Assembly: GCA_958009085.1 (NCBI GenBank)
Contig: OY253686.1
Coordinates: forward strand, 806,001 to 870,000
Direction of reading: 5' to 3'
Length of the DNA: 64,000 nucleotides
Origin: Protoeuglena noctilucae
Taxonomy: Eukaryota
Below are positions 6,001-56,177 of the stretch, one piece after another. Position numbers and translations under genes: made by a program. The notes under the pieces are model-generated. The model did not search any database, had not been told where the DNA came from, and saw only the letters and a list, made by a program, of their open reading frames with translations. Every line of letters starts with the position of its first letter. Positions within the stretch are counted from its first letter, which is position 1.

Positions 6001-9000
6001 CCAACGACCAACACGCATGCTCGCACCCCACCCCTCACCTGCAGCTCTCCCCCCACCTCGGCCACCACCACGTCCCCACTCCCGGGATGCACCATGCACT
6101 CTGCGATCTCCATCAAGCTCCCCGCTCCCCTGACACACGCCGCGTTTGTAGGTACCAAGTCCGCCACACCCCCCGCCTCGCCCGCACCCCCCTGCCCCCG
6201 CACCGCCACCAGCCCCAGCGCAGCCAGGCTCGCCAGCGTCGCTGCCTCGACAGATCGGACCAGAGATGCTGCCAGGGACCCTCGGGGAGAGGCGGAGGCG
6301 GCAGAGGTGGGGTTGGAGAGGGTGCGGGTGGCAGAGCGGGCGGCGCGGGCCGAGGCACGGAGGGCATGGGTGTGGTGGGAGCGGAGGGTCTGTGTGAAGG
6401 GGGAAGGTGAGGTGTGTGAGAGTGGGCGTGGTGGGAGCGGAGAGTCTGTGTGAAGGGGACGAGTGGGGGAGGTGAGGTGCGTGTGAGTGGGCGTGGTGGG
6501 AGCGGAGGGTCTGTGGGGGGGGGACAGGATAGGTGTGTGAGAGTGGTGGGAGCGGGGGGGATGTGTGAGAGTGGGCGTGGTGGGAGCGGCGGGTCTGTGC
6601 GTGGGGGGAAGAGTGGGTGCAGTGCGTGAGAGTGGTGACCGCACATGCATGAGAGCTGGCTTGCAATCCCTCAGCAGCGACCCCAAGCTCCTCATCTCCA
6701 CCCCCCACCTATGGCATATACAAACAAACACCCCCATTCCCACTCTCACCTCTGCATCCACCGCCACCCCTGCCCCCCCCAGCCGCACGCGCACGGGCGA
6801 CTGGGTCAGCGGCCCCGCCTCATCCTCATCCCCAGAATCCGTCAGCGCCAAACTCCCATCCCCCGCAACCCCACCCGCACCCGCACCCGCGCTCCCCGCC
6901 CCCACCGCCATCGCCATCGCCATCGCTGTGGTGGATGCCTGGCGCCTGGGACTCTGCTTGGCTCTCGGGGCGATGGGTGCGAACGGCGACCGTGGCTCTG
7001 ACCCTCGCGAGCTGCCGGGCACGGCATCTGTCTCATTGCCATCTGTGTCTCCAGGAGACGGCAGCGGTCGCTGGGCTGCATACGCCTCCAGGGCACCACG
7101 CACTGTGGGAGAGAGGGGGGAGGGGGTGTTATGAGGGGTGGGATTCAGGAGATGGGATACACAGGATGGAATTGGAGAGATCAGCTTGGAGGTTCAGGAT
7201 AACAGCGTACTGACTGAGACATGAAAGCGGTGGGAGTGAGATAAGACATGGACAAAGCATTAGATCAAAACACAGACGTGCGAGTACAGCTGAAGTACCA
7301 CCAACCACTCAGCCATCCCCTCCTAGCTCACCTGTCCTGGCGCCCCCCTCGCTCCCGGGGCTGCCCACCCCCCACATCCCCGGCGCCCCCGCCGCCGCTG
7401 CGGGGCTCAGCAGCGCCCGCCGACTCCACGTGCGCGGCGCGAAGGGTGGCCCGGCAGACCCAGCGACCGATCCCGGCTGCCGTGGTGAGGCGGTGGATCC
7501 GATAGCGCCCGGGCTGGCTGCCCTGCCATCTACACCGCTGTCAGGCGAAGCAACTGAGGCGGATGCGGCGAAAGATGCGACGGAGGGTCCGCGGGCCAAC
7601 AGGTCGCGTGCGCTGGTGGAGCGGCGGCGGGGGGCGGCGCGGGCGGCGCGGGGCCGGGCGGCCGGGGTGGCGGTGGCAGTGGCGGGGGTGGGGGTGAGTC
7701 CCTTGGGGTTGGGTGGGGCGCGGGAGGGCGCGAGAAGGGTGCAGCCGCGTGCGGTGAGCTGCGCGCCGGCGGTGGAGAGGAGTGCACAGGTGGGGAAGGA
7801 GCGGAGGAGGCAGTCAGAGACCTGGGGATGGGTGGGGTGGGGGTGGGGTGGGTGAGTGCGACTGTTGAAGGTACAGAGCAGGTACATGGTGGGTGAGTGT
7901 GATGGCAATCACTTAGTGTGTAAAATGTCATCGATAGTGACTATTGACTGTTGGTAACAAACCACAGCGCACTCCACATTAGCCCCACTACACCTGCCAC
8001 CACCGCAGCCCCACAGGTGCCGGCTCACCTGCACGGCCGTGCCTGCGCCCTCTGCCATGACCCCGTGGCTGGTGGCGGATCCCGTGAGGTGACTGTTAAC
8101 AACTGCAGCCGTGGCCTGGTCCCCGACGAACACCACGGGGCCCTTGCACCCCGAGAGCGTGCACGCGTCCACCTCGGCGGTGCTGTCGGCGCCCTCCACC
8201 GTCACCACGCAGCCTGGGGGGGGTTGGGAGAGGAGGAGGTGGTGGGAGAGGGAGAGGGGTGGTGGGAGAAGAGGTGAGGGAATGAGGTGGGAGAGGGGGT
8301 GCGGTGGAGGGAGAGTGGGCGGGTGAGGGAGCGTGGCATGCGTCGCACAGAGATATGAACAGTAGCATCGTCATGCCTTGAAGCAGACGGTCTCAACAAA
8401 CATTCCCAGTTGCGATACACACACACACACACACACACCCACGCGTTACACCTTGGCTCTTCCCTCACCTCTGGCGGAGGCCAGCACCCGGCACGCCCCC
8501 ACGGACAGGCAGGCCCCGTCGGTGCAGGTGAGGCAGTCGGAGGCAGCGCCGAACAGGTCGCAGCGCTCCAGGGATGCGCGGCTGGAGGGGCCCTGCACCA
8601 CCACCAAGGCACCGTCCTGCGGAGATGGGGGGGGGGGGGGGAAGGGGGATGGGCGTGAAGAGCGATACGGGGCTGCTTAGGGTGTCAGGTGGTATTAAGG
8701 GCAGGTTGGGTGATGATTATGACCATACACCACGGACCCAACACATACACATAGTAACACTAACCAGTCAACCATGCTCCGTATCTCGCCTGCGACCCGT
8801 ACACGACCGACCCCAGGGACGCGACCTCAGCCCCCCCCAGCGCCACCACGGCGCTGCCTTGGAAGGAGTGGACGCGGCAGGCACTGAGCAGCGCCACGGA
8901 CCCGGGGCCCTCCGCGCGCAAGCCGCCCTCCTGGCAGCCAAACACCTCGCAGCCCTCCAAGTCAGCGATGGCGCCCTCGGACACCCCCACGCCCACGCCC

Positions 9001-11692
9001 AGGCAGTCGGAGACCTGGGGAGGGATGAGAATGCTTTAAACTAAGAATTGTCGAATGCTACACTAGTTTACATGACTTGTCAGCCTGCTCGTAGCGATGA
9101 GTGCTTGCCTGGCTGCCCAGGCACCCATGCAGGGCATTCCTAAGCCACACCCCCATCGCATCCCCACCCTCGCTCGCTTCTCATATCCCACCAGTCACAA
9201 CTCTCACAACCCCACCCAACTATCTTTCTCACCTGGCACTGCACCAGCGCCGCCTGCGTGTCTGCCCCCGCCACCACCACCGCCCCCTCCCTCGACCGCG
9301 ACACGCGGCAGGCAGAGGCGTCCAGTCGGCCCCCATCCTCCGCCACCACACAAGGGCCGCGGGACTCGGTCACGAGGGTGCCTTCCAAGGCTAAAGCAGA
9401 TCCCGTGCCAGACACCACCACAGCTGGGCCCTTCTGTGTAGAGAAGACACGGCAGGGTGGTGGTGGCGAGATGTGAGTAGGCGCAGGCATAGCGCAGGCG
9501 TGGTTATGGCATGCTAGCCGTTCATTCCAACACAAGGCCTTGCTGCTCGGATGCTTGACCACTCTTGCCCCGTACGAACCGGCATTCTCCACTCGCCTTG
9601 GACCCCAGCACCGCCCCATCTCAACCAACTCCATCCACTCTGCGCTCGCTCAAAACCTATCTCATCCCCACCACCCCCACCCAGCCCCCACTCGCCTTGG
9701 ACCCCATCACCGCCCCCTTCGTGAACGATGCCCTGCCCCCCTCCGCGGCCCTCAGCCCCTCTCCCCTGCACTGCTCGACGGTGCACTTGGACAGCGCACA
9801 CGTGGCCCCCGCCCCCACCACCTCTAGCCCGTGGCCGTTGGGAGCCGAGAGGACACACGCGTCCAGTGACGCGCGCACTCGTGTCGACAGCGGCAGCGTG
9901 CGGGAACCGGACGCGCCCTCCTCCCTGGGGTGGATACGAGTGATAAGATGCATGTGGTGAAGAGCGATGATAACAGCGATGCTGGGTAACTAAGGCGATC
10001 CTTAATCAGTCGCAAGCACTGAGGTTGACTTGACACGGTGCATGCCGAGGCATCGTCACCGCACCATGCCAGCACACCGTGCCGCTTTATAACCTCACCT
10101 GATGGGCGCCATGCCCCGCGTCTGCCCCTGCGTCTGCGTCAGCGTCCCATCGCCGCGGCTCCTCGTCAGCAGGCTCTCCGCCACCGATGGCGGGCCCCGT
10201 CTGCCCAGCTGCAGCGAAGGGGCCACCACGCCCCTCGCGCTCCCGGCCGCCGACTGCGCCGACTGCAACGAAGGCGCCGCGTGGCCCTCGGCGTGACTCT
10301 GTGTGCCCACTGCCCCAGCCACCGCCATGCGAAGGCTGCCGTCCGTGCGCGAGCGAGCCAGGGGAGGGCGCTCCCAGGCCAGAGCAGAGCCGCGGGCGTC
10401 CGCGCCGGCAGCGGAAAGCGTCTCGGATCGCGCGAGGGGCGGGCGGGGGGGCCGCGATCCCGGCCCCGCCCCCGCCGCAGCCCCGGTCGGAGTGGGGGGC
10501 GCCGATGGTGACGCGACAGGCACCTCCCCGCCCGCCCCCGCACCCTCCGCAGCTGATGCGAGGGTCGCCGCCCCGTCTGCGCTGCGTCGGGCCCCGGGGT
10601 CACTCGCGCGCCCCGTCACCGGCCCCCCTGGGTCCTCGTCGCCTTGTCCCTCTACCCCTGCCTCTGCCTCAACATCAATCTCAGCCTCAGCCTCAGCCTC
10701 CGCCTCCCCGTCCGCCACCAGCAGGCACGTGGCGTGGGGCGCGGAGGCCACGAGTCTCACGCGGCTGAGCAGGACGCGGTCGGCGCACACGCGCACCCCG
10801 CGCTCGGTCACAATCTCCCCGTTGGTCACTATCACGCGGGGCTCGCTGCGGGCAGGCCAGGAGACGCGGCTGTGTTTGTAGCGAACATCGCGGGACAGGG
10901 GTAACACCCCTGTGGGCACCTGGCTGAATGGCAGCGACTGTGCAAGGAAGGACAGTAGGTACGGTGGTGCAACAAATGTGACGTGCCACCCCAAGGGCAC
11001 GTTCACTGTCCCCTCGCGGCCTCACCGCAGCACGAGAGACGTGAGGCGGACGCGCGAGCCCTGCAGGTCCAGAATGGCGGCGGGCAGCGACGGGGGCTGC
11101 AGTGGGTCCTTCCCCCTTCGCCGCTGCGACTCCTCCCTGTGCCGTGCCAGCACCTGGGCACGGTGCCGCGCCAGGCTCCTGCGAGGGTCGAGAGCGGGAG
11201 CGCAGGCGTGAGGCCCGACGCTTTCATTCACAGCAAAGACGCGACTTGGGCAGGGGCAGGTGCATTTGTCTGCACCTGAGGCCCTCCTGCAGCCCCTCAG
11301 CATTTGTGGGGCAGGCCCAGACCTCCGCCTCCACGGCCCAGTCCTCCGCATCCTCGTCCGCTTCCGCATGACCCTTCGGCGCATCGCCGGGGGGCACGCC
11401 GGTGGTCTCTGGGCCCTGACGAGCGGGAACCTCGCTGTCACGGTCCTGCGCAGGCGCGGGCAGCGGGCAAGTTGCGGAAAAGGAGCTTTTACGTGACAAA
11501 GCTCACATCCGTAACACACGGAGGCAAGCATCGCAGCGGTTCTCGGCTGGGGCGCCCTCGCAACTCCCTTCTCCTTGCCGGGACCAAGGGTGGGGCGCTG
11601 TAAGCGCGATGGCCGCGCCGATGTCGGCTCACCTCTTCGACACGGAATCCACGCCCGGACAGGGCGCGCCCCAGCCCTCGCACGATGTGCAT
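1..11692 (-). CDS. Giant Ala/Gly/Val/Cys-rich right-handed parallel beta-helix (pectin-lyase-fold) repeat protein; about 14 exons; 3' end runs off the window start
   Basis: Approximate exons: 11692-11633, 11445-11276, 11179-11025, 10845-10099, ~9925-9696, 9433-9233, 9014-8790, 8616-8468, 8213-8029, 7821-7332, 7102-6749, 6389-6039, 5818-3310, 2699-<1. Joins checked were phase-compatible. Repeated 'xxxxC.V.GC.G.GV.A.GG..V.L..C' units are typical of beta-helix repeats. The last exon appears open to base 1. Start codon is tentative. Confidence 0.75.
2933..3002. repeat. Intronic 21-bp minisatellite (~3.3 copies of TATGACCCTCCCCTGACTGGG)
   Basis: Directly visible tandem copies inside the 3309-2700 intron. 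Confidence 0.9.
6371..6600 (-). repeat. About five degenerate tandem copies of an acceptor/exon-start junction (CACAG|ACCCTCCGCTCCCACCAC)
   Basis: + strand unit GTGGTGGGAGCGGAGGGTCTGTG recurs near 6371, 6429, 6494, 6544 and 6577; the copy nearest 6389 continues as coding exon. Confidence 0.8.
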
Positions 11693-13378: not shown

Positions 13379-13621
13379 GACTCGCCTCGTGACTAAAAAC
13401 AGCTACCCTGTTCTGGCGCTGGCAGCGCGGATGCGGATAGGGCGCGCTTGCAGGCTCGCCACGCTCGTTTCAACAGTCGGCAGAGTGGACGCAGGCACGC
13501 ATTGCGATGCACCGGTGGCGCGCTGCCCCGGCTTTGCGATTGGCGCTCTGCTAGGCTCGGCCACAAGTGTCAGTGACCGCACGCATGTACAGAGAGACAA
13601 CGGGTACTTGCCCCATGCCAG

Positions 13622-15259
13622 TCACCAGGGCAGGTCGGTGCCCGGCGTCACGCGGTCTGGGTCCTCGAGTGCCCACACGCCCAGGCCGAGTCCCTTGGAC
13701 CCCAGCGCCGCCACGAACCGCCCGGTCGTGTCGAGGGTCATGTCCGCCACCGGCTGCAGGATGTAAGGCACCGCCTCCTCTGCAGACACAAGCGCAGGGG
13801 CAGACCATTTATGAATGAGGACGTACAGCACCGCCTCCTCTGCGAAGGCGAGCAATGAGCCAGACCATCACTGGTTGGAATGAGTCCCTTCCAGTCCCAC
13901 TGATATCGATATGCTGCTCCTGGCGCAGCTCTGGCGGTAAGACCAAAAGCCTCCTCTCCCCTGTCTTCTGCAACTTGCTGTCTCTAGAACAACTCACCCG
14001 GGAACACGGCCCCCAACTCCTCGTACAGGTGCGCGTACTTGTCCTTGGTCATGTCTGTCTTGAGGAACCTGTGTCAGAAACAAGGAGCACTCTGACACGT
14101 CACACAACACGACATCTGCCTGTCCTGCACCGTCAGGGCAGGCCGAGGCCGCATGTCGACACCGGAATGAGGCAGCCTGCACTCCGTCTCATACCCAGAG
14201 TGAATAGCATACGCACCCGGGGTGGATCATCACAAGGGGAATGCCCTTGGGCTTCAAGTCCCACGCGAGGAGCTTCCCCCCCATGTTGGCCGCAGCCTTG
14301 GACATGTGGTGGCCGTAGTTGGCCCCGCCCTCCTTCTCCGTCCGCAGGCCGATGGAGCCGCCCTCGCTGGTAATGAAGCCGATCCGCGACCCAGACGACA
14401 CCAGGCCACTCTGCGAGCGTCATGCGTGATCGATGATAGATATGTCAGGAAGAGTAGGGTAGGTCACAAAAGCCCTATTCATAAGTGCTAGCCTGTGATG
14501 CCAGGCACCCGCCTGCAAGCACGAGTGACCCACTCCCCTCCCCTGTCTCATCGCACCTGAGCGAGGGCCGACACGATCTGGACAGGCGCAATGGCGCAGA
14601 TCTCGAACATCTTGCGCTCCTCGTCACGGTTGACCTCCAGCACGCCCTCCTGGGTGAAGTACCCCGCCACAATCATGAGCTGCGAGATGGGAGACGAGGA
14701 GAGGAGGTGGGTCCGCTGTAGCTGTTGGATGAGGTCAGCTGTCAGCAGCAGGCCGGGATGGGGGAAGAGAGCATGTTGATTATGGGTCAAAGTTGGTTGT
14801 TATGAGATGCCTAAGGTCCATGCCCATCTCTGCACATCCTGCGTAGGCCCCCACTCACCGTATCAATCTTGGTGATCCCCGCGTCGCGGAGGCCCTTGCA
14901 CAGCTTGTCGGCGACTTCGTGGTCGAGGAAGTCGATGCCGGAGACCGCAGCCTTGAGGCCCAGGCCAGCCAGGTCGGAGCTGGGCTGCTTGCGGCATGTC
15001 CCCACCACCGGGCACCCCGCCTCGTGCAGGCGCTTGGCCATCTCCAGGCCCAGGCCGCGGTCCGAGCCGAGGACCACCGTCGTGCCGAACGTCGACGGGT
15101 ACTTGGCTGCCTCCAGCAGGTAGTTTGCTGCGAGCCACGGGCAGGTGCGGGCGTCCAGGCAAGGCATCAACGTGGCTGTGAGCTGCTCGACAGCCGAGCC
15201 TCGGCGCCCTTACCCGGCGCACCCAGCTGCGTGGGCGGAATGGTGACGCGCGTGCTCAT
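13622..15259 (-). CDS. Short-chain dehydrogenase/reductase, CsgA/C-factor-like
   Basis: Six exons. Rossmann motif VVLGSDRGLG, ITSEGGSI, NYGHHMSKAAANM and IHPGFLKTDMT; ends DLPW-TGA. Confidence 0.88.
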
Positions 15260-15806: not shown

Positions 15807-17311
15807 TTACGCTACCAGTCTCCCGCCGACCGCTTGCAGGAACCGCGCCACCTGCTCGAACCCGTACTTCTCCGCCACCCCCCGCGCGGTGAGCCCGCGG
15901 CCGGTGGTGGCGTTGACGTCCGCGCCCGCCAGGACCAGCGCGCGCACGCACTCCAGGTCCCCCTCCCGCGCCGCGAGGTGCAGCGCCGTCCAGCCGTCGT
16001 CCGTCCGCACCCGCGCGTCGACGCCCCACCGCACAAGCCGCCGCACGAAGGCCGGCGACGCGTTGGCGGCTGCCATGTGGAGCGCCGTGACGCCCCGGGC
16101 GGTGCGGGCGCGGGGGTCGGCCCCCGCCGCGACCAGCACCTCCGCCACGGCGAGGTGGTCGCCCTCGGCCGCGGCCAGGAAGGGCGTCTCGCCCCTCTCC
16201 GCCTCCGCGCCCGGGTTGGCCCCCTTCGCCAGCAGCAGCTGCACCACCTCCAGGTGCCCCTGCTGTGCCGCCAGGATCAGCGGCGTCTCCCCGTCCTGCG
16301 TCTCGGCCTCGAGGGGCAACCCCGCCGCGCACAGCGCCCGCACCACGTCCGTGCGCCCCGCGTACGCCGCGTCGTGCAGGGCCGTGTGCATCTCGTAGTC
16401 CTCCCAGTCGACCGAGGCACCCGCGGCAAGCAAGACGTCCACGACCGCCAGGTGCCCGCCCCGGGCCGCTGTCTCCAGCGCCGACACGCCCCCGGGCCCC
16501 ACGGCATCGACGCGGGCCCCGCAACGCAAAAGGCACGCCACGGCGCCCAGGTCCCCGTCGCCCGCCGCGCGGATGAGGCACGCGTGGAAGGCGTCCGGCT
16601 TCAGAGCGGCGCGAAACCGACGCACCACGCCGTCGTGGCCCGCTCGGCACGCCAGGTAGAGCGGGGAGTGGCCGTCGCAGTTGTCCGCCACCGGGCTTGA
16701 TCGGAGCACCAGCAGGGCCTCCGCCACGTCCTCGTGGCCCAGGCGCGCCGCGAGATGGAGCGGCGTCTCGCCGAAGCGGTCGGGCGCCGGGCGGGTGCCG
16801 GAGCGAAGGAGCTGGCGGACGCGCGGCCCGTCCCCCGCCGCGCACGCCGCGTGCAGCTCACTCCAGCGGCAAAACCACTCGAGCCACTGCCACTGGCCCT
16901 TCTTCAGCGCCTCCTCGCGCGTACACGCCGGCGGAAGCGCCGCGACGGCTTTGAGGCCCAGCGCCGCGCCCACCGCGTCCGCCTGGGCCTTGATTTCCGT
17001 GCACACCGCGCGCGCGCGTAGGAGGTCGCACAGGGGCATGCGACAGAGGACCTCCCGCGAGACGGCCTGGAAGGCCTCGGCGACCTTTGGCGGGTGCGAA
17101 GGGGACAGGGCGGCTGCGGGGGCGGGAGATGTGGGAGACGCTCGTAAACCCTAACAGACGTGACAAAGGGCGCACTCGCCCAGCGAAACAGGCGGACAGC
17201 GCGCCTGCCAAACACGGTTCATGAAAGTGACTCACCCTGCGCGTGGAGGCTCAGGCTCCCGGGCACTTGGAGCGCGGGGGGCCGCGGAACAGCGGCGGTG
17301 GTGCCCGCCAT
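15807..17311 (-). CDS. Ankyrin-repeat protein with an F-box-like N-terminal segment
   Basis: Exon 17311-17236 plus a large exon ~17113-15807. About 10 ankyrin repeats (GETPLHLAA, GWTALHLAA). EVLCRMPLCDLLRARAVCTE resembles an F-box. Confidence 0.85.
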
Positions 17312-36463: not shown

Positions 36464-36561
36464 AGTAGTGGTCGTAACGCCCAATTCAAACAAATGTTAG
36501 GCCAACGCCCCACCTCGCCTCCCGCTACCTTGTGCCCTGGCGAGCCACACGCGGCCGCCCC

Positions 36562-38247: not shown

Positions 38248-38516
38248 CGCCGCCCGCGCCTGCTCCCGCGCGCCCTGACAAGGGTCGTTACAAAAAGCTT
38301 CGCAGTGTCCACTCTGCTGGTCGCTGAGAGCACTCGCGCCCCCTCAGCGACCGGACCGTCTCGTGCCGCACTGCAAGTTGTGTCACCAGCACAACAGCGA
38401 AAATCCCCCGCGCTGCATTCACAGCTCGACGCGTTAGCTACAGGCACACTTGCACTCGGCTCGCGGCCGCCAAAGGACCCCAGGCGTTGGAAGGAGCCTT
38501 CGCCAAAAGTGGGCGC

Positions 38517-39684
38517 ATGCCGGCCCCGAATCCTGCCCCGCCCGCGCGAGGGCTGTCCAAGGAGACCAGGCGAGCAGCATGTTTGCGTCGTAGACGACCT
38601 GCAGTGATCTTGGCCTTGCGGCTCCGATGCAAACGCCCGTCTCGCTGTGGTGACGTCGACATCCGTCTCGCTTCCCCCAGCGCGTTCCTGGACAGCCTCC
38701 TTCGGGACAAGAACCTGTCGCTCCGGATGCGCGAGGACATCAAGAAGGGCATGGCCACCGGCGAGGACTGGGCCGCACAGCTCAGGCGAGTTATAGCGGT
38801 GCTGAAACTTGGCCGGCAAGCTTCTCGGCCGCTCCTTGCGTCGATACACCCTTCCTCAACCCACCGCAGCACTCGGAAGGCCTCTCACGTCGCCGCGACC
38901 AGCGCCCGGCCTCGCCCGCGGGGACAGCCCTCCCGGCGCCGCACGACCGCCCTGCCAGCAGAGGGCGCCTCGCTCGCTGCCATGCCTGCCCGCACGGGTG
39001 AGTGTGCACGGATCGTGGGTCTATCGCGTCATTTCGAGTCACCCTGACTCACTGGGGCATGTCAGTGTGTACAGGCCGCCTTAACACACCTGGCACCCCA
39101 CCGCAGGAATCCGCACCCGCGACCAAATCCTGGCGGATACGGGCAACTACTCCGTGGAGCGGTTCGCGGGGACGGGTGTCGGCCCCAACCGCGATGCGGA
39201 GAAGGGCCGACTGGCGAGGGTGAATGAGATGGGGCGGGAGGCGGCGGGGTGGCTGGAGGCCGCGAGGCTGGCGGGGCGGGGAGCGGTGGCGGGGCCTGGG
39301 CCGGGAGCAAGGGGAGAGAGTGACGTGAGGGAGGAGCTGATGGACCAGATTGCCGAGGAGATACGGTGAGGGGCGCAGGGATGGAGAGGCACATGCAAAT
39401 GACATTTTCACCAAGGCAGGCCACCTGCTTTGGTAAATGCACATGTCACCACCGTCACCCGTGCCTGCCTTGGTACGCACATGCCCCTTCAGGCATAGCT
39501 TGAGAGCTGTCACGCTCCTGAACATCAGAAATGCCTTCAAACAATAACCATGCGTGCTCGCAGGGGCCGCCGGGAGTTCTACGAGCAGATGCAGGCGGCT
39601 GGGCGGGAAAAGGAGAACCGGCATCTGTTGGGGGAGATATCGTCACGGCTGGCGGAGATGAGGCGGCTGCAGGGGGCGGGGTGA
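38517..39684 (+). CDS. UPF0193 (EVG1/C22orf23-like) protein
   Basis: Five exons. SKET.AFL..LL....L at the N-terminus; RDAEK.RL; EELMDQIAEEIR.RREF.EQM.A.G....LLGEISSRL.EM at the C-terminus. Confidence 0.75.
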
Positions 39685-39799
39685 CGCGGGGTAACGGGAG
39701 CGCGGATTATGGCAATATAGATAGCAACAGTAGCGCTACTACACACATCACAGCCGATGGTCATTGCACGCTTGCAACTCTCTCTCTCACTCTCTCACT

Positions 39800-41102
39800 T
39801 CACTTGCCGCCACCCCCGCGCTTCTGCCGCCCCCGCTTGCCCATCTTGCCGTCCCCCTTGCGTGCTGCCACCTTCTTCACTTTGCGACCCTTCACGCCCA
39901 GCTTGGCCAGCGAACCCGACGCCATCTGGCGCTTCATGCGCCCCTCCTGACGCTGCGACAGGCGAAAGGCGTCGGGTGGTCATGCACCTGCCGAGAGCTC
40001 TTGAACACCACAGCCTCGACCCCTTACCCAAAAAGCTCACTTCCCATCCCACCCCACCCCACTTCCACTCCCACCCCACCCACCTTGCTCAGCTGCCCTC
40101 CCCCCTCCCGGTGGTCCCCACGCCCGCCACCCCTGTTCCCCCTCGCACCCCCACCGCCCTCATCCTCATCATCGAACGTCCCCTCCTCGTCTTCTCCACC
40201 GCTGCCCCCAGAGTCCGAGTCCCCAGGGTTGATGGCCGTCACTGCAGACACGCCACAGCACATAACACGCTTAGCGAACTGTGTCTACGCTGTGCTGTGC
40301 AGCCTAGTGCAGTGTGCTGTGCAACCCAGCAACGCTGCTCTCACCCGTCACCGTGGCCATCCCCCCCGCCACGTCAAACACACGCTGCCCCTCTTGGTCA
40401 TCTCCACCCATGCATCAGCCCTCACCCGTCACCGTGGCCACCCCCCCCGCCACGTCAAACACACGCTGCCCCTCCTCCTCCCTCCGAGGGTCCGCCACAG
40501 CCACGGCGCCGTCGTCCGCACCCTCCTCTGCGTCGCTGTCCGCCAAATCCGCGGCATCCAGCCCTATGCTCCTGCGATGGTGCAACAGAGGGCATCTGTT
40601 GGCCTCACAAGAAGCAAGGCACAGAGCTGCTGGAATGCCCGCCCCGCCACGCACTCACTGCAGAAACTCCTCCCTGGATTGCTTCCGCGACTCGAGACGG
40701 TCCTGCCGTGCGCGCTGCGGGTGCCGCGGGGTGATTGTGCTTGCTCCAGAGCAGCCATGCCACGTTCTAGTGTGCAGTGTCGCCCATGCGCTGTATATAT
40801 ACGTGACAATGGTCGACGCGGATTGATGAACATCACATCTACGCATTGGCAACGTGTGCGCACTCGCAAGGGCCGCTGAGACGCGAGCGTGGCCTCGCCT
40901 CGTGCAGCTTGGCGACCGCGTCCTTCTGGCGCTGCTTCTTGCGCTTGTGGAACCCCGTCACAAAGTCCCGGTGGTCTTTGGGATCGAACACAACCTCCAA
41001 GCCTCGCGTGCGGCGATTCCGCTTGGCCATGTGCCGGGCATTGCCGCGCTCGTCGGGCAGCCGCCCGTCGAAAGCCAAAAAGTCCACATCGCGCGCCCCC
41101 AT
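39800..41102 (-). CDS. RRP17: Ribosomal RNA-processing protein 17 / nucleolar protein 12 (Nop25 domain)
   Basis: EVVFDPKDHRDFVTGFHKRKKQRQK motif, acidic middle, Lys/Arg-rich tail; five exons. Confidence 0.88.
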
Positions 41103-42005
41103 GACGGCTGCGCCTTGGACGTGAGGTGCCCTTGCAAGGCGAGGAACGGAGGCGCACCGCGGGTGCGAGGGAGCTGGGCGAGGGACAAACACCGCCGCAG
41201 TGCTGTGCCCTGCGCGCCACGGAACAAGCACAGGTCTAGAGACATCCACGGCAGGACTGTCGCGATGGTGCGGACGTAGCTGAACAGCGGCCGCGAACTC
41301 CGGCCTCGTCGGCCGCCCGTGACACCTCATCTGGCGTTCCGCTGCCGGTCCCGCCTCCAGGGAGACGCCCGACACTCTCCCCTGCTCATCCCCTGATACT
41401 TCGCTAGTTGCTTGTGCTGGTGTGTCGCTCGCCTCTTTGTCTTGTTGTAGAATTGCGCTGCGTTAGCTCGCCACAGGGCAGCATCGCCCTTTCCGGCTCC
41501 CGCGCACAGGCGGCGCGCCACACCGCGTCCGCACCCCCATATCTTGCTCGATCGCTCGCGTTGGCAGCGAGCCGGCCCCAGCGGGCCCGTCGCCCCCGCG
41601 CGGGTCGCCGGGGGGAGGATCGAGCGTTGGCGACGGTTGCGTAACAGCCCGCCCCTGGTCCGCTGAGAGACGCGCTGGGTGAGCGTTGGCCCTCGCGCGG
41701 TTTCATCGTCTGCTCGACATCGAATTCTGGCCTCGACTTTGCGTGTCCACCCTCTGCGCCGCGGCGCGGGGCTGCACACTTGGCGCCATGCCTTGGCCAG
41801 CCCGTGCGCGCCCGAGACGACGGCATTCGCAGATCGCGGCGCACAAACGTACTCCTTGACTGATACCCCAGCGCTTCTTTTCCTCGGACCCCGCCATCGC
41901 GCGCAGAGCGCGGCGGTAGGGCAGTTTACAGAACGCGACTTTTTCGACGCACGCAAAGCCCTTCCGGCCCTCGTCCCCGCAGCGATGGGTGCAACGAGAG
42001 AGCGG

Positions 42006-47587
<5,582 letters not shown>

Positions 47588-47853
47588 GGGGTCGACGCGG
47601 TGGAACGGCGCGACGCGGTGCCTTCTGCCATATCGACTTTTGCGCGTTTGCTGTTCAACGACCGACGTGCCTTCCATTCGACACATGAGTGCTTGCTACT
47701 TGCTCTGCCCTGCGACGCCACCTCCTCCGAAACACGAAGACGCGTCGATGCTCGCGCCCGGACGCCACGGTTGTCACCCACTGCAGAGAGAAACGAGGGA
47801 AGAGACCCGCCCACAACGCAGCTCAGCTCAGCTGCTAGTAACGAAATTGCGTG

Positions 47854-47953
47854 GCCGGCTCAGATAGGGGCGAAAGGTTTTGTTCTCATGCGCCGGTTAG
47901 TAGGGCCGGCTCGAGCGAACTATGCCTTGTTCCTTTCCATCCTCACTGCCGGC
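47854..47953 (-). ncRNA. Box C/D snoRNA, U80/snR60 orthologue (two LSU rRNA guides)
   Basis: Minus strand: GCCGGC stem, box C GTGAGGA, guide AGGCATAGTTC (antisense to LSU GAACUAUGCCU), guide CTTTCGCCCCTAT (antisense to LSU AUAGGGGCGAAAG) directly before box D CTGA, closing GCCGGC. Confidence 0.85.
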
Positions 47954-47969
47954 GGCCGCGGCAAGCCCT

Positions 47970-48063
47970 CTCGTGGCCTCAGCATCCATGGTATCAGTCG
48001 GCGGGCCGAGGCCCATCAGATATATGCTTGTCTATTGATGTCATGCGTATCCTCGGCCACGAG
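47970..48063 (-). ncRNA. Box C/D snoRNA, U27/snR74 orthologue (SSU rRNA Am27/28 guide)
   Basis: 9-bp terminal stem CTCGTGGCC/GGCCACGAG; guide AGACAAGCATAT (antisense to 18S AUAUGCUUGUCU) before D' CTGA; box D CTGA; box C is degenerate. Confidence 0.78.
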
Positions 48064-48091
48064 GCGGGGCGGAAAGCGGCGGGCGGGGGAG

Positions 48092-48171
48092 GGCTCAGAG
48101 AAATCCGCTAAGATGAGGTCGGCTCACCCGTTGCCGTCGCCACGCGTGTACTCATATTTCTCATCACGGCC
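48092..48171 (-). ncRNA. Box C/D snoRNA guiding LSU rRNA GAAAUCCGCUAAG (possibly plant snoR22-like)
   Basis: Perfect box C GTGATGA, box D CTGA, short GGC/GCC stem; 13-nt guide CTTAGCGGATTTC antisense to conserved LSU rRNA. Confidence 0.8.
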
Positions 48172-48852
48172 AGGAAAACGGCCCCGCGCGGCGCGGGCGG
48201 GCCGGGGAGCGCGGGGGCCGCGGGGCCAAGCCGCCGCCTGCTCCCCGCGACGCCCGGGGCCCCGCCGGCGGATCGAGGGGCCGGAGATCGAGGGAAGGAG
48301 CAAGGGGGCCGGCCGTGAAGAGGGCACGGCGCGGCTGGAAAGAGGAAAACGAAAAAAGACGCCGACCAGGTCGAATCGAACGACTCACGCGCTAGCGTGC
48401 TACGGGTTTGAAGCCCGCACCCGGCACCAGCCGGGATCAGGTTGGCATTGCGGGCCGGGCGGCGCCGCTCGTCGCTTGGGCAGCAGGCGCAGAGAACCAG
48501 CATCCCACTCACCCAGAAGGACCTCACTCACCTGCTGACGCGCAAACTGGGGAGCGGGCGGTGGGCGGGCGGCAGGAGAGAAGCGGCTTCGGCGACACCG
48601 GGTTCTGGTCCCCGGCGCCCCTACCCGACGCTTTCCGAGGCTCATGTGGCGTCTATGGGTGGCTACACCGTAGCAACGACCAGGAGCACGGGTGGTGTCA
48701 GCAACGGAGCACTGAGGGCGAACGCAGAGCGCACTCCTGTCACGGGGACTGTGCCGCCGCTCTGCAACCACGATTCTTTCCTCGCAAGCACCCACAGCTT
48801 GCTAAGCCATCGCTGGGTAGGGTCGACGGACCGCTCGCCCTTTAGGGGCTCC

Positions 48853-49929
48853 ATGGCAGGTGTGGGCGCGTGCAACGACAGCACGGACCGCGGTCCGACC
48901 GCGTGCGCCGGTGACCGCGCGCAGAGGGCTCCTGATTGCATCGCCAGATCCACTGCACCGTTACTGCCTCGCCCCGCCCCGCAGCGGGATCCCCGGGGCC
49001 GGGCTTGGCCTTCCCCGTCCCCGTCCCGCCTCCCGCCCCGCCACCGCCAGGTGAGACACTCTTTGGTAACCGCCGGCGCTCCCCACGCCCCCGGCATCCT
49101 CTCCTCTCCCCTCATGCAGCCCTGTCTTCGCCGACCCTACCTTCCCTGCCATCTCCCCTGTCGCTCACTCACCGCCACGCTGCCCCCTCCCCACGCAGCC
49201 GTTCCCTCGATCTCTCCCCCTGGTATGGCCTTGGCGGAGGAGTTGGATCACTTGATGTTCTTCCAACTGCGGGACGGGCGCAAGTTCTACGGGTGAGCAT
49301 GAGCACGGATGAGTTGTGCTGTGAAAGAGGGGCGACCGGGTGGGTGCTGTCACATACCCAGCCCTGCCAACCCCGTCTCGCCGCAGGGTGCTGCGTTCTT
49401 TCGATCAGTATGCGAATTTGGTGTTCGATGGGTGCGTGGAGAGGTCGGTGGTGGAGGACAAGTACGCAGATGAAGACCTGGGCATGCAGGCGAGCGTTTG
49501 ATGAGACAGGGGGCCATGTGCTAAGCTAACTGGGAAGTAAAGAGTGACTATCCATTTCTCTCTCTTCAGCTAAGTGGCTTTGTGTTTGTTAAGTTGCAGG
49601 TCATCCGTGGGGAGAACCTGGTGTTGATGGGGGGGGTGGGGGAGGAGGGGGACCCTGTGCCGGACATGCCGGCCTCCTTCAGCCGAGTGGGAAAGGAGGA
49701 GATGCAGCGATTGCAGGAGGTGAGGGCGGGCAGGGTGGGGGATGGGCTACTGCAGGCATGCTTGTCTGCCACCCACGCCCCTTCGCAGCTGTCTGGCAGC
49801 TTGGGCCGTGAGAATTGATACCATATGCTATCGTGCGTGCTTCACGTGACCGCGCCGCAGGAGCAGAAGGAGGCGCAAAGGGCCGCACAGCAGGCGCTGC
49901 CCGTCAAGTTCGACTTCCTGGACGAGTGA
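48853..49929 (+). CDS. LSM1: Sm-like protein LSM1
   Basis: LAEELD....QLRDGRKFYGVLRSFDQYANLV....ER....KYAD..LG..VIRGENLVLMG; six exons with consistent phases. Confidence 0.9.
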
Positions 49930-50094
49930 AGGAGTGGGATGTCTCATGAAGAGACACTGCTGCCCGGCTGGGTGCGATCGACGAGCTGGTTTGCATCGCC
50001 ACCGTCCTTGCAAATGGCCTGTTCCCATGCTCTCTGTCCTTCCCCACTCCTGACGTTCAACGAGTGCCGTATGCGTATGTCATCCCACCACCCG

Positions 50095-51905
50095 TCAGAC
50101 GGACAGCAGCAGCACCTCCGGCCGCTGCACGTGGTCGGTGATCTCCCACCGGGGCGGCACCCACTTGCCGTCCCGGTTGACGTAGCCGCTGCGCTCCTGC
50201 CGCAGCTCCCAGAAGTAGAACAGCGTCGCGATCTGGTCCTTCGAGCCCTGCAAACAACGGTGCATTACCTATGACAGGAGGACCCTCGGCACGTGCACAT
50301 AACCCTCTCAGCTACCGCACCGCCCCTCACGCACCGTGCCATCATCAACCGTCCTCCCCTCACCTCGGTCACGTTGCCGTGCTTGTCCCTGACGCAGTGG
50401 ATGCGCTGCACCCGGACGTCCACCACCATGGCGGGGTCATCCGCGTTAATCTCCATGGCCACCAACTCCACCTCGTCCGTGCTCAGCACGCGAGGGTCAG
50501 GGTACATGTCGTTGGCCCTGGGAGGGAAGCGACATGAAGTGGATGAGTGTCAATACCAGAGCGGTCAGTGTGACATGACAGTCAGCCACATGCAATCCTC
50601 GCTGCTTCCACTTCTGTCGGTCCCCGCTTACGCCACTGCATGCACCCCCACTGTGTGTGTGCGCATCATCCTCACCTGAGTGCCTTGACGCGCGCCTCCA
50701 GTCGCTCCGCCAGCTCCTCCGAGCCCATGCGCCGCAGACGGGCCATGTCGCCCTCCGCGAACGCACGCTCGAACGCGGGCACCTGCCCCCGCACGCCCTT
50801 CAAGAAGGTCGGCATGTCGAAGCTCGGGTCACGCGCCAGCACCTCCCTGCGTGTCACAGGGGTAGGAATGCATGCTACGGTCACAGCAACGCTCGAGCCA
50901 ACAGAGTTGGTGCCCAGACATGCATAAAGAGAAGTGCTGTACAATGTGCCATCACAACTCCTCGTCACTTGCACCACACCCCCGCTGTCACCAGCACCCC
51001 ATCCCTGACAAATCTCTCACCTCATGGCCGATGCATATTCCGACTCGGACCACAGCCCCTCGGTCATGTCCTGGATGCGGTGCACCATGGGGTTGTCTGA
51101 CGTCTCCCACTTGTCCTGCAGCTGACCCCGGCGCTCCTCCAGCCCCCGCAGCACCGCCTGCACCGTCTCGTTGGTCTCTGCCTGGGCACGCATCTCGTCC
51201 ATCAGGCGGCGCCAGCGAGGCACGTGCACGCGCGCCGCCACCAGCTCCGTCCGCCGAGAACCCTCGTCCTCCACCGGACGGTCGCCCCTCTCCACCGCGT
51301 GGCTCTGCAGCATCTCCGCGTATTGCTCCTGGGGAAGCAGCACCGCGCGCACCTCCCGCGCCAACCCACGCAGCAGGCCGGGGACGCGGCCCAGCACGCG
51401 CTGGTAGCTCGGGCCCGCCTCCTCGCCCCTCCCCGCGCGGTCGGAGGCCCCGCCGTCGCCGCCCGCCCCGGCAGCCGCGCCCCCGCTGGCCGGGCCGGCC
51501 CCCTCCGCCTCGCCACCCCCGCCGCGGCCCGGGGGAGGGGCGGCCCTCCGCCCGCGGCGCCGCTCGCCGCCTTCTTCTTCGCCTCCGACGTCGCCCACCG
51601 GCGCAGGACCTCGGGAAGCGCCGCCATCGCGGGCTCCTGCGGCCCCGGCCGGAGCCCCGCCACGGCGGACCCCCACCTGCGCGACGGACGGGGCGCGGGG
51701 CTCAGGGAGGGCACCAAGTGACTACACTTAAGCGATTGGAGGGCACGGGATGCGATGCGCTGCGTCCGTCGATCCAACGGCGCAGGGGCACGCGGGCAAG
51801 CAGCGTGTGGGCATTCTCATCAGCCTGCAGGCTTCAGATCCCCCGCGGCGGCGACCCAGCTGGGGCGCGAGCAATGTGGCTAGAGCTCACCTGGCGCAGA
51901 AGCAT
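50095..51905 (-). CDS. TIM44: Mitochondrial import translocase subunit TIM44
   Basis: KWETSDNPMVHRIQD....SE...A.REV.ARDPSFD.P.F, QRIHCVRDK.GNVTEG.KD.I, PRW; five exons; start tentative. Confidence 0.88.
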
Positions 51906-52016
51906 TCCCCCGGGCGCGCGACAACATCACGGTGCTGCCTTTTCCCCACCGTCGCTGAGATCTCCGAGTCCCTTCCAGCCGAGCTTGGCCTGGAGCAGGT
52001 TTCGGCCAGTGCGACG

Positions 52017-52767
52017 ATGAAAGACTACGAGGGAAGGGTGGTTGGGCCTTCCGGTGATGGCTGGTTTGTGCAACTTTTCTGTGCCAGTGACACAGCAGCC
52101 GACGTCATCCGNNNNNNNNNNNNNNNNNNNNNNNNNNNNNNNNNNNNNNNNNNNNNNNNNNNNNNNNNNNNNNNNNNNNNNNNNNNNNNNNNNNNNNNNN
52201 NNNNNNNNNNNNNNNNNNNNNNNNNNNNNNNNNNNNNNNNNNNNNNNNNNNNNNNNNNNNNNNNNNNNNNNNNNNNNNNNNNNNNNNNNNNNNNNNNNNN
52301 NNNNNNNNNNNTATAGCTGCTTGCACATGCACTGCGCCACGTCGAGCCTTTCCCTGCCCACCTCGGCCACTTGCCACCCCCCCAGGACTATGGACAAGCA
52401 GTCCTCCACCGGGGGCGGCCCCGCCACCTACCAGCAGTCCCTCGCCAGCTCAAGACCCCGCGGTTCCCGGCCACCCCCCGCCCCCACGCCCCCCAGCCCC
52501 CTCGCCAGCACCGCCCTCTCCCACGCCCGCTCCTCGCGCGCCCTCAGCCATAGCACGCAGGAGGGCCAGCCGCCCGCCGAGGATGCCCCCCGCGTGCCCC
52601 TGCGCGGGTTCGGCCCCGCCAGCCTACGCCGTGCCCCGCCGCCCATGCCCACGCATCCGGAGGCTGGGCTGGGGGCCGCGGGGGGGCTCGGGGCCGTCGG
52701 GGAGGGGCTGGGGGAGGAGGCGGGGGAGAGTGAGGGCACGGGGGCCTTTTGGGCAGGAGAGGTGTAG
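52017..52767 (+). CDS. Gene of unknown function interrupted by the gap (putative first exon from 52017; last exon 52386-52767)
   Basis: ATG-initiated open frame entering the gap; CCCCAG acceptor and a Pro/Ser-rich terminal exon after the gap; no recognisable domain. Confidence 0.35.
52112..52311. other. Assembly gap (200 N)
   Basis: Run of N. Confidence 1.
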
Positions 52768-53355
52768 GGTTGTCATGCGTGTCATGCCCTGCCGGACTCT
52801 GGATGTCATCGATGGGATGCCAACCACTCCCTGTGCCTCGTCCCTCTTCCCTGTTGTCAACGACCCTCGCAATGTGCGGTTTCCTTTCACGCCTACGCAC
52901 TGCGCGCGTTCCATGCCGCTGTGCCATCCACGTCTCCGTTCCTACCCCACCCTGTCACCCAGTCGTGCTCCCACCTGCCGTGGTGCATTTTGAAAGCGTA
53001 CGGAATTGGGAAGTAGACAAGAGGTGCACGACAGGGCGCTAAGGGCGGAGAAACCAAAGCGGCGCCAGTAGGGCACGGCAATACTTGGCATATCCAGCCC
53101 CCATCGTCACTCCGGTGGGTTAGTTCGCTTCTATCGTCAGATCCAACCCATCGGGAATATCGTCGAAGGCTGAGGAAGCCGAGATCGCGCAAGCTCGAGG
53201 TGAGGGGGTCGCCACCGGTGCGCCTCGCCGCGTAATTCGTCATCGTCGCGTCTAGATGTGCTTATTGTCATCATTTACTGCGATTGGCGGCGAGTTTAGG
53301 CGACGAGGGTGCGGTGCCGCTGCTGACGAGCTGGGTAGTCCTCGCAGGTCCAGCC

Positions 53356-56177
53356 ATGCCGGGACAGAAGCTCCCCGACACGCGGGACAGCACGCCCACG
53401 CTCACGACCAACGAGGGCGCCCCGGTGTTCGACAACGTCAACAGTTGGACCATCGGCAGGTCCGGGCCCATCGTCATCCAGGACGCGCACTTCATCGAGA
53501 AGCTGGGCCAGCTCTCGCGCGAGAAGGTTCCCGAGCGCGTCGTCCACGCGCGCGGGGTGGCCGCGAAGGGTTACTTCGAGGTATGAGGCGGGCACGTATG
53601 CAAGGGTCACGCAACCGAACGTTTGCGTGGGCCCCGCCCGCGCCCGATACACATTTCCGGTTTGCCTCCGCAGGTCACGGATGACATCACCGAGTTCTCC
53701 TGCGCCGACGTCTTCCGCGAGGTGGGCGCCAAGACGCCCGTCTTCACGCGCTTCTCTGTCGTCACCCACTCCAAGGACGTCCCCGAGTCGATCCGAGACG
53801 TGCGCGGGTTCGCCGTCAAGGCAAGCGAGAGTGCTTTTAGTATCTCCAATCACCCAAAGCAGCAACGCGTTGCTGTGGGTAATGGCCACCGCGTGCCCCG
53901 CCATCGCAGTTCTACACTCGCCAGGGCAACTGGGACCTGGTCGGCAACAACATCCCCGTCTTCTTCGTCAGGGATTCGATCGAATTCCCCGATCTCGTGC
54001 ACTGCCTCAACGTGGACCCCCAGACCAACGTCCAGGCGAGGAGGCACAGCAGACACGCATGTCAGGTGTCACGGTGCCTTGTGCAGGAGTAACTGGACCT
54101 GTGGCAGGGTGGCTGCCATGAAGCGAGCACTGTTGTCGCCTGCGCTGCCCCCTGCTCTCCTCACTCACACCCAGCTTCGCTCTCCCCATCACTACATCCT
54201 CGTCCACCCCATCTCTTCCCTCCACCTTACCCCCCCAGGAGGGCTGGCGCATCATGGACTACCTGAGCCACCACCCCGAGTCCTGCCACATGCTGACCTT
54301 CCTCTTCGACGACGTCGGCGTCCCCGCCAGCTACCGCCACATGGACGGCTTCGGCGTCAACACCTTCGTGTTGGTCAATGCCCAGGGACGTGAGCGCCTC
54401 GCCAAGTTCCACTGGCTGACGCGGCAGGGCGTGCAGTGTTTGATGGACGAGGAGGCGGCGCAGGCGGGGGGCAAGCAGCACAACTTCGCCACCCTGGACC
54501 TCTTCCAGGCCATCGCGCGTGGGGAGTCCCCCGAGTGGAGACTCTGCATCCAGGCGAGGGGTGGGGGGGGCGGGGGTGATGTGGGAGATGATTGAACTTG
54601 CATGGCAGCGGCATGTCTGAGCCCATGCCTGCTTATAGCAGGGTCGAAGGGATGCGCCTATGCTCTTGCGTGACCCTGGCCACCCCTGCCCATACCCCTC
54701 CCTTCTTCCCAGATCCTTCACCCTGAGTGTGTTCACTGCTCTCACCACCCCAACCCCCACATCCCTACTCTCCCCCCAGATCCTGGACCCCGACCGCGCG
54801 GGTGACCCGTCATCCTCACAACGCTGTGCTCACCGCTCTCACCACCCCACCACCCACGCCTCCTCCCTCTCAGGTCCTGGATCCCGAGCGCGCGGGTGAC
54901 CTCTCCTTCGACCCCCTGGACCCCACGAAGACGTGGCCCGAGGACCAGTTCCCCCTCATCCCCGTGGGCAAGATGGTCCTGGACACCAACGTCGACAACT
55001 TCCACAATGAGACGGAGCAAGTCGCCTTCTGCCCCGCCAACGTCGTCCCGGGAATCGACTTCTCCGACGACAAGTGAGATGATCGTGTCATGCATATGGC
55101 AGGCGATGCATATGGCAGGCGATGCATGGGTATGTGGCTGTACATGTGTCAACTACACCGACTTCTCCAACGACAAGTGAGCGATACTAGTGGCAGGCGA
55201 TGCATGTGGCGGTGTCAGCTGGGATGCAGAGGGTGATGATCATGTCGTGGCAGTCGCCGCATGTGGCTGTGTCAGTCACAGCTGGGATGCACCCATGCGC
55301 ATGCGTGCTGTCGCTTGCGCACACCTTAACTGTGCCTGGTGGCTGTAGAACCGTGGCTGTCGTTAACGTTGGCATGCGCCCGGTTGCCACCCCGACCGAC
55401 TCGCTACACACGCACACGCACACGCACACATCACCCCCCTCTCTCCCCACCCCCACCCCCAGGCTCCTCCAGGGCCGCATCTTCTCCTACCAGGACACCC
55501 AGCGCTACCGCATCGGCACCAACTTCCAAATGCTCCCCGTCAACGCCCCCCAGTGCCCCTTCCATTTGAACAACATCAACGGGGCCATGAACTTCAGCCA
55601 CCGGGAGGGCAACGTCAACTACTACCCATCGCACCGGGAGCATGCACGCGAGGCAGAGCGCTTCCCCGTCAGCCAGCAGCGGCACGAGGGGCCCAAGACC
55701 AAGCAGCGCATTGAGAAGGAGAACAACTTCCAGCAGGCGGGGGAGCGGTGGCGGTCGTGGGACCATGGGCGCCAGCAGCGCTTCGTCAAGCACTTCTGCG
55801 AAAAACTCTGCGACCCGAGGCGAGGCATGCACGGCGAGGGTGACACCCGATAGGCGCAGGCGCGGCACGCGTCGGGTCATCGGCAGCAGTGATGCGTGTT
55901 GGTATCGCCTTGTGGTCATCCCTCTCTCAAGCTGCCTTCTCAAGTGTCAATGCCTCGTCGCACGTCGCCCCGTCTCCCCACACCGCTGCCCAGCCCAGCC
56001 CTGCCTCGTTGCCCCTGCAGGACGCCCTGGGAGGCGCAGGACCTTTGGGTCGAGTACTGGACGCAGTGCGACCAGACGCTGGGGCAGATGGTCAAGGAGC
56101 GGGTGCAGGAGGCGCGCAAGGGGCGCGACGGGGCGGCCCTGCCCCCGGCTGCCGCACAGGCGCACGGCAAGGCGTGA
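53356..56177 (+). CDS. CAT: Monofunctional haem catalase
   Basis: [13 protein letters not shown] (distal His), [46 protein letters not shown] (proximal Tyr); seven coding exons; probable 5'UTR intron ~53200-53348. Confidence 0.97.

Follow-up and report, generated by a model that had tools for sequence, protein, structure and literature searches.

Why do the introns in a 64-kilobase (kb) stretch of the Protoeuglena noctilucae genome (contig OY253686.1, positions 806,001 to 870,000; hereafter the window) contain degenerate copies of their own exon-intron boundaries, and is the duplication process behind them aimed at splice junctions? The copies are real. In the reading that we favour, with a probability of roughly 0.6, short tandem duplications arise frequently, are filtered by selection and are not directed at splice sites, and they leave the copies behind as a harmless side effect, given how short the introns are.

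The copy pairs listed in the original prediction were recovered by inspection and by three independent scans (Tandem Repeats Finder, a gapped self-scan and a repeat finder). Fifteen of the 16 loci listed there stand, the exception being the fivefold array at 6371-6600, whose exon boundary is unverified, and two further loci (28118/28176 and 44699/44748) were added, along with a low-complexity match at 40038-40081. The events fall into eight genes, as many as had been claimed as a minimum, encoding beta-helix, SDR, SNAPC3, NACHT/WD40, Nop25, LETM1 and catalase proteins and including one gene at 26-30 kb. Gapped self-alignment of the whole window at offsets of 12-400 nucleotides (nt) revealed 126 local direct repeats, and the 63 that are left after exclusion of low-complexity ones compare with 1-8 matches in six dinucleotide shuffles made in 300-nt blocks; the best shuffle scores were 31-44, while the real sequence reached 150. 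In an anchored test, a 90-nt probe centred on the junction had to match, with a score of at least 32, a copy spanning the junction position within its own intron. This occurred at 17 of 242 cognate junctions across the window versus 3 of 1452 non-cognate comparisons, and in the set supported by RNA or protein at 6 of 48 junctions versus 0 of 1104 comparisons of a probe with other introns. A junction copy is thus carried by ca. 7% of the junctions and ca. 12% of the introns of the window, or about one intron in eight. The same test gave no copy at any of the 20 junctions of ten RNA-supported introns from three other genes.

The junction-spanning copies have periods of 49-129 nt, and their units abut head to tail and are mostly similar over the whole period. 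A typical unit consists of an exon fragment of 8-59 nt and the adjoining intron end of 26-95 nt, and several events were re-duplicated to 3-5 units. Under identical settings the whole window contains 43 direct-repeat families versus six weak inverted pairs, and neither strong local inverted repeats nor inverted termini were found in it. As inverted copies are lacking, snap-back and templated-insertion repair were dropped as explanations. The exon-derived parts of the copies are identical in 428 of 465 positions (92%) and the intron-derived parts in 604 of 734 aligned columns (82%, a value somewhat inflated by the free-end gapped alignment), which fits neutral decay, as the exon part has one constrained copy and the intron part two free ones. 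The host introns are 184-389 nt long and, after subtraction of the duplicated units, ca. 100-290 nt, which is near the window median.

At each of the nine testable junctions the outer of the available sites is used: six of them belong to LETM1 (documented by a transcript-derived protein and RNA contigs), two to catalase and one to SNAPC3 (both documented by Pfam profiles). At the other 7-8 junctions the use of the outer site is that predicted by a hidden Markov model (HMM) of the genes. The original prediction stressed that donor copies lie downstream of the used donor and acceptor copies upstream of the used acceptor. This description is true, but it carries no weight as evidence for targeting because it holds by construction; copies persist only where splicing continues at the outer site, so that their position inside the intron reflects survivorship. 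Many copies retain intact splice signals, as also stated before. The GT is lost only in the two copies of the SNAPC3 donor 21713, which indeed read AT at 21654 and TT at 21605, and the nearest copy of the acceptor 42901 scores 5.1 compared with 8.6 for the used site. At 13 of 15 junctions, a shift of splicing to the nearest live decoy would bring in either a frameshift or an in-frame stop, so that selection would act against any such redirection. In-frame and stop-free inserts would result from two acceptor copies, those of 13779 (60 nt) and 45345 (129 nt).

These properties do not by themselves indicate whether junctions are preferred targets, as implied by the junction-centred duplication or repair process that had been proposed. 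We therefore compared the events with a geometric null, in which the period and the host-intron length minus the duplicated units define all uniform placements that leave the mRNA intact, i.e. with the unit either within the intron or across a single boundary and including 8 nt of exon or more. Under this null, 10-11 of the 22-24 events are expected to span a junction. Observed were 17 of 24 (score at least 30) or 14-15 of 22 (score at least 40), corresponding to a nominal one-sided P of 0.005-0.05 depending on how the doubtful cases 6389 and 44709 are classed. A mild enrichment over intron interiors (14-17 versus 10-11 events) is possible, and the proposed targeting is unsupported: the breakpoints lie 8-59 nt from the splice site on the exon side and 26-95 nt on the intron side, with no characteristic value. 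Geometry accounts for about two-thirds of the pattern. Interior arrays also occur in the introns of the window (seven cases), and the slower decay of exon-derived sequence makes junction-spanning events more readily detectable.

On this basis we propose the following scenario. Ordinary direct tandem duplications of ca. 50-130 bp would arise, sometimes followed by re-duplication to 3-5 units, with replication slippage, microhomology-mediated template switching or unequal exchange as candidate origins. Since the introns (median ca. 190 nt) are similar in size to the duplications, about half of all intron-touching duplications would include a boundary. Provided that the spliceosome keeps to the outer site, the extra unit with its exon fragment and spare site would stay within the intron and be harmless, while duplications lying wholly in exons or redirecting splicing would be removed by selection. 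The survivors would be introns lengthened by pseudo-junctions, which subsequently undergo neutral decay. Of this, the copies with their head-to-tail order and excess over chance, the use of the outer site at the nine testable junctions, the decay pattern and the geometric expectation are demonstrated, and the mutational mechanism, the selective filtering and the neutrality of the survivors are inferred.

Several points weigh against this scenario. All results stem from a single 64-kb window, and about half of the junctions come from the HMM gene model and not from RNA. Donor and acceptor matrices rate decoys and used sites about equally at 14 of 16 junctions, and the scenario gives no reason why decoys of such strength are ignored. 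Two events show unrelated spacers of 70 nt (9618-9687) and 27 nt (40394-40420) between copies that are 96-97% identical and consist of an exon tail followed by 5-8 nt of intron (9589/9688 and 40337/40418). Neither spacer has a counterpart behind the second copy or elsewhere in the window, and they are not expected from one simple tandem duplication. The exon share of the unit is on average ca. 0.36 and never above 0.65, compared with ca. 0.55 for uniform placement, which suggests either that exon-rich units are selected against or that the process starts in introns. Finally, a residual 1.4-1.6-fold excess of junction-spanning events remains on small numbers, of which the slower decay of the exon part explains only a portion according to a rough estimate, and only 1 of 17-18 events with a period of at least 49 nt is interior.

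This excess and the near absence of long-period interior duplications are the main arguments for a junction-proximal mutational hotspot, in which breaks or replication stalls near splice sites truly concentrate the duplications there and drive intron growth. Its candidate causes are G-runs after donors (GTGAGGGGG, (TGG)n), C-runs before acceptors and transcription- or splicing-coupled damage, and G-rich heads and C-rich tails are in fact visible in known introns. Excerpts of a survey of Chlamydomonas and Volvox report that the density of tandem repeats peaks in introns and that they are significantly over-represented close to intron-exon junctions (PMC3887541), so that a mild real bias towards intron ends would not be surprising. 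However, the excess is small for 22-24 events, with P at ca. 0.04-0.05 once the two doubtful cases are reclassed, and the slower decay of exon parts inflates the detection of junction-spanning events. Nothing is centred on the junction itself, which lies 8-59 nt from the exon-side breakpoint, and the 20 junctions of the ten introns mentioned above carry no copy. A mild junction bias is possible; a genuine hotspot we regard as unlikely, albeit the most credible of the alternatives. Somewhat more doubtful still is the far-reaching version, in which junctions are true duplication hotspots, introns grow mainly by copying their own ends and the spliceosome follows an 'outermost site' rule. If true, it would mean that equally strong inner sites only 50-130 nt away are ignored.

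A functional retention of the copies, as decoy or alternative sites for unproductive splicing or isoforms or as splicing enhancers or buffers, appears improbable. The matching scores of decoys and used sites and the two open in-frame inserts would suit such a role. Yet the copies decay at an approximately neutral rate, both copies of the donor 21713 have lost the GT, 13 of 15 live decoys would lead to a frameshift or stop, and intact dinucleotides are expected by chance at a divergence of 3-20%. Moreover, the transcript-derived protein and the RNA contigs show outer sites only, although the RNA evidence consists of assembled contigs, which drop rare forms. Just as improbable is the insertion of foreign or mobile DNA with a long target-site duplication (introner-like or by break repair with filler), where the copy would represent the duplicated target. 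The unrelated fillers between near-identical copies at 2 of 17 events are reminiscent of such insertions and could equally come from a later insertion or deletion. Within the window, no further match to either filler was found, the other events are similar over the whole unit and thus contain no insert, inverted termini were not found in the window, and the junction probes do not match other introns, nor is a repeated element family visible in the window. That the copies are false expansions by the assembler is scarcely credible, since Logan contigs of a DNA run (another assembler, the run possibly being the window's own source), despite breaking at repeats as with any short-word assembler, lead from copy 1 through the spacer to copy 2 at flank depth (40364-40471 and 44302-44443), the copies diverge by 3-25% and hence are not the same reads placed twice, and the RNA joint 44349>44593, present in three RNA runs of another study, excises the copy as part of the intron.

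Returning to the by-product scenario, its contribution to the introns can be quantified. Recognisable duplications comprise ca. 2.3 kb (ca. 1.9 kb junction-spanning and ca. 0.4 kb interior) of ca. 27.7 kb of intron, i.e. ca. 8%, while the duplicated units make up 20-65% of the length of the affected introns. Boundary duplications are therefore common here and lengthen introns, but the original prediction that they are a main source of intron sequence goes too far, with the reservation that old, decayed units would escape detection. The suggested intron gain by tandem duplication found no backing either: in no case do the partners of one of the 63 local repeats lie at the donor and the acceptor of the same intron, and a new intron of the type postulated by Rogers (see below) was consequently not found in the window.

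The gene models used as yardstick profit from the composition of the window, which has 65% G+C, is densely packed with genes and contains a single gap (200 N at 52112-52311). Among sampled words of the segment 40000-46000, ca. one-third are present in marine metatranscriptome runs and 98% in DNA runs of one organism. The G+C content of 89% at third codon positions versus 62% in introns renders a simple two-strand HMM feasible. Pfam searches with 110 exon translations named beta-helix, HbpS-like, SDR, ankyrin/F-box, GH5 hydrolase, SNAPC3, NACHT/WD40, SAM-domain, Nop25, LSM, Tim44-like, catalase, AP2 and release factor genes. The LETM1 gene was named via P0001, a transcript-derived protein of 837 amino acids with LETM1 plus EF-hands, which maps to 15 exons at 42027-47584 and defines 14 exact introns, 13 of them GT-AG and one GC-AG. 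Together with ten introns from RNA joints, which belong to the spliced joints collected from contigs of three RNA runs and one DNA run over 35400-55399 (15 of the 40 joints are listed), 24 introns are supported. The HMM finds 21 of these and misses 42530-42900, 44351-44593 and 45074-45344, in all of which junction copies were taken for mini-exons; several further introns are affected likewise. Junction copies called as in-frame mini-exons lie at 42535-42597, 44449-44472, 45216-45278, 23230-23232, 23281-23283, 23618-23638, 23698-23721, 40345-40392, 54713-54726 and 54780-54801. With introns merged across mini-exons, the whole window contains 125 introns with a median of 187 nt, a mean of 221 nt and a total of ca. 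27.7 kb. As RNA cover is absent over 53409-55399, the catalase junctions were tested by the continuity of Pfam profile positions over adjacent exons (155-255, 256-321 and 323-381); together with the corresponding continuity in SNAPC3 (79-152 and 155-192), this validates the acceptor 54874 and the donors 55073 and 21713.

GC donors occur in 2 of the 24 supported introns; for Emiliania huxleyi, excerpts of a published study give ca. 56-60% (PMC4028052), a difference for which this species was discarded as a possible source. In a protein search the Nop25 exon matched only distant homologues, the best being from green plants and one green alga (54% identity), from which a green-lineage placement of the genome appears possible, while the SNAPC3 exon gave no match in the same kind of search. 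A P0001-guided scan of metagenome contigs revealed no relative, and a search for related DNA elsewhere with an exact 34-nt exon pattern gave no match. The individual features are compiled in Table 1.

Table 1. Junction copies, intron-interior duplications and GC-AG introns of the window. Positions count from the first letter of the window; a slash within a junction or motif marks the exon-intron boundary, copy positions are given in brackets, and percentages are identities.
Feature	Position	Strand	Evidence and remarks
Tandem array, ca. 5 units of 56-65 nt	6367-6637	minus	Units carry acceptor-like CACAG (minus) and donor-like GGTGAGG (plus)
Predicted GC donor 9696/9695	9688-9716 (used copy), 9589-9617 (intronic copy)	minus	29 nt, 96.6%; HMM only
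Predicted acceptor 13779/13780, SDR-like gene	13758 versus copy 13818-13843	minus	Period 60, 26 nt, 88%; HMM only
SNAPC3 donor 21713, intronic copies at ca. 21654 and ca. 21605	21596-21728 (21596/21654/21693)	minus	Pfam-validated donor
Predicted donor 23348, intronic copies 23273-23297 and 23222-23252	23222-23370	minus	Both copies keep GAG/GTGAGGGG; junction HMM-predicted
Predicted acceptor 23565/23566, upstream copies 23601-23657 and partial third 23674-23728	23528-23728	minus	
Donor near 24303 (ACG/GTGAGGG), intronic copy 24193-24239	24193-24311 (24193/24264)	minus	Period 71; HMM 12 nt off
Predicted GC donor 28149/28150, adjoining full-unit copy 28176-28233	28118-28233	plus	Period 58
Predicted donor 32716/32717, NACHT/WD40 gene, copy 35 nt downstream	32703-32754	plus	17-nt exact copy
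Predicted donor 40426, Nop25-like gene	40418-40474, intronic copy 40337-40393	minus	57 nt, 96.5%; 27-nt filler
LETM1 donor 42529/42530, copy 90 nt downstream	42509-42656 (42509/42599)	plus	RNA contig and P0001
LETM1 acceptor 42900/42901, three upstream copies starting at 42686, 42750 and 42826	42686-42938	plus	Last unit from 42897
LETM1 acceptor 43912/43913, intron with GC donor, upstream copy 43790-43860	43790-43951 (43790/43864)	plus	
LETM1 donor 44350/44351, copy of the full 122-nt unit at 44414-44547	44292-44547	plus	Joint 44349>44593 in three RNA runs
LETM1 donor 44709/44710, followed by 49-nt units, each with CAG end/GTG start	44699-44813	plus	Marginal: 5-11 nt exon
LETM1 acceptor 45344/45345, partial upstream copies	45213-45397	plus	Repeat partners at 45342/45358
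Catalase acceptor 54873/54874, upstream copy 54728-54807	54728-54901 (54728/54825)	plus	Period 94-97; Pfam-validated
Catalase donor 55073/55074, copy 103 nt downstream	55056-55210 (55056/55159)	plus	CAA/GTGAGCGA; Pfam-validated
Intron-interior tandem duplication, no junction touched	22618-22790	minus	Periods 36 and 108
Other interior duplications	29066-29140, 47060-47219, 55090-55127, 55190-55291, 8217-8336, 2929-3002		
GC-AG introns	37570-37680, 43667-43912		Supported by RNA or protein
GC-AG introns	9434-9695, 28150-28364		Predicted; duplicated copy keeps the GC donor in both

The events differ in quality. The array at 6367-6637 is real, while its first unit would span the exon boundary 6389/6390 only if the putative exon 6240-6389 (minus strand, HMM) is correct; with a net coding score below zero and a second possible acceptor at 6280, this segment leaves the boundary unverified. 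Also weak are 13758/13818, whose score of 37 lies in the range of the best shuffle scores, and 32703/32738, which scores 34 and was flagged as of low complexity. At 9589/9688 both sites read AAG/GCGAGTGG. The exon ending at donor 23348 matches positions 1-58 of the SNAPC3 profile (Pfam). Its two intronic donor copies (GTACCCAGACACCAGGAG) are closer to each other than either is to the exon (CTACCCGGACACCAGGAG), suggesting that the second copy was made from the first or that the exon changed later. The 23528/23601 unit of 73 nt comprises 38 nt of exon head, identical in all 38 positions, and 35 nt of intron tail.

In LETM1, the 42509/42599 unit includes a (TGG)n microsatellite, and the units at 42686-42938 are 64-76 nt long with 27-30 nt of exon head. 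The 44292/44414 unit, a repeat of about 100-130 nt, is composed of 59 nt of exon tail and 63 nt of intron head; it is described as young and shows GTGG microhomology at both breakpoints, a point in favour of the proposed scenario. The partial copies at acceptor 45345 overlap in origin, that at 45213-45253 reproducing AG plus exon positions 1-39 and that at 45277-45316 exon positions 14-53. The copy at 43847-43866 does not contain 18 nt which stand between GAAGAAG repeats in the LETM1 exon 43913-43951. Six codons may thus have been gained by exon slippage after the duplication, or the copy may have lost them.

Some further observations concern the window as such. The contig depth of the DNA run falls from ca. 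100-130 to ca. 50 to the right of ca. 45368, where one 25.9-kb contig takes over; the low-depth stretch may be hemizygous or, in a diploid genome, specific to one haplotype. Relative to the window, a DNA-run contig shows seven single-base deletions at 51546-51907 within a gene on the minus strand that adjoins the Tim44-like exons, and those at 51546, 51548 and 51907 recur in RNA contigs. These are probably small indel errors in the window, unless the runs stem from another allele. The flanks of the gap at 52112-52311 are joined by a long DNA-run contig with ca. 2.2 kb between them (6737 to 8949 of the record), and the real gap is consequently larger than 200 nt. DNA-run joints skip 353 nt at 46744-47098, with 29 other letters in between, and 292 nt at 36403-36696; as their flanks measure only 20-21 nt, they may derive from repeats or other loci and not from alleles. 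Two long intron-free exons on the minus strand contain in-frame repeats, of the beta-helix type with periods of 60-351 nt at 3311-5479 and of the ankyrin type with periods of 99, 198 and 297 nt at 15810-17111. These repeats are coding and distinct from the intronic duplications.

The junction copies matter in several respects. They reveal a countable route by which short introns lengthen, and they provide natural experiments in splice-site choice, with duplicate sites of equal strength 50-130 nt inside introns and the outer ones seen in transcripts. They also set a trap for gene finders, so that automated annotations of the genome may contain false exons derived from junction copies. Moreover, an apparent targeting of junctions can come from geometry and selection, and any genome-wide claim must beat that null.

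A literature search gave no description of pervasive intronic copies of an intron's own junctions among the titles, abstracts and excerpts that it covered. Among related phenomena, intragenic tandem duplications that include splice sites were reportedly described by Gao and Lynch in 2009 (PNAS 106:20818; cited in PMC3443670 and PMC4974935). They share with the events found here the short intragenic tandem duplication over an exon-intron boundary and a reading frame kept via one of the duplicated sites; in the window, in contrast, no new intron or exon is formed, but an existing intron is lengthened and the spare junction lies inside it. In the survey of Zhao et al. 2014, tandem repeats are, according to its excerpted text, densest in green-algal introns and more frequent towards intron-exon junctions (PMC3887541). 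The genes concerned are, as here, GC-rich and intron-rich algal genes, although the green-algal membership of the present host is only suggested, and the repeats are mostly short motifs inside introns, with boundary-crossing units that copy exon and splice site not being reported in the excerpts.

In the Rogers model, reviewed in PMC3443670, an intron arises when an exonic segment with AGGT is duplicated in tandem; a demonstration (PMC3265369), cases in Drosophila (PMC2891723) and a further treatment of this type of gain (PMC4974935) have been published. Common to this model and the window is a short tandem duplication that supplies a second splice site and does not alter the mRNA as long as the appropriate sites are paired. 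In the model, however, the whole intron is the duplicate and both of its ends copy the flanking exons, whereas in the window an older intron was already present, the copy concerns just one of its boundaries and no repeat connecting a donor with an acceptor was found. Li et al. in 2009 reportedly found in Daphnia that introns can be gained when staggered double-strand breaks are repaired, which leaves a filler flanked by short direct repeats. The pairs 9589/9688 and 40337/40418 resemble such direct repeats around unrelated filler. In place of repeats of a few nt, theirs measure 29-57 nt and enclose the filler within an existing intron, and the majority of the events in the window show no filler. 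This type of repair is listed among the intron-gain mechanisms in the excerpted part of a review (PMC3443670). Introners, finally, are intron-generating transposable elements of marine protists (PMC9860276), and the window shares with them the marine algal setting, the shortness of the introns and the duplication of sequence at their boundaries. In contrast to introners, the introns of the window have no element sequence in common and no terminal inverted repeats, and instead of target-site duplications of short and fixed length, only the local junction is copied, in lengths that vary from 17 to ca. 130 nt.

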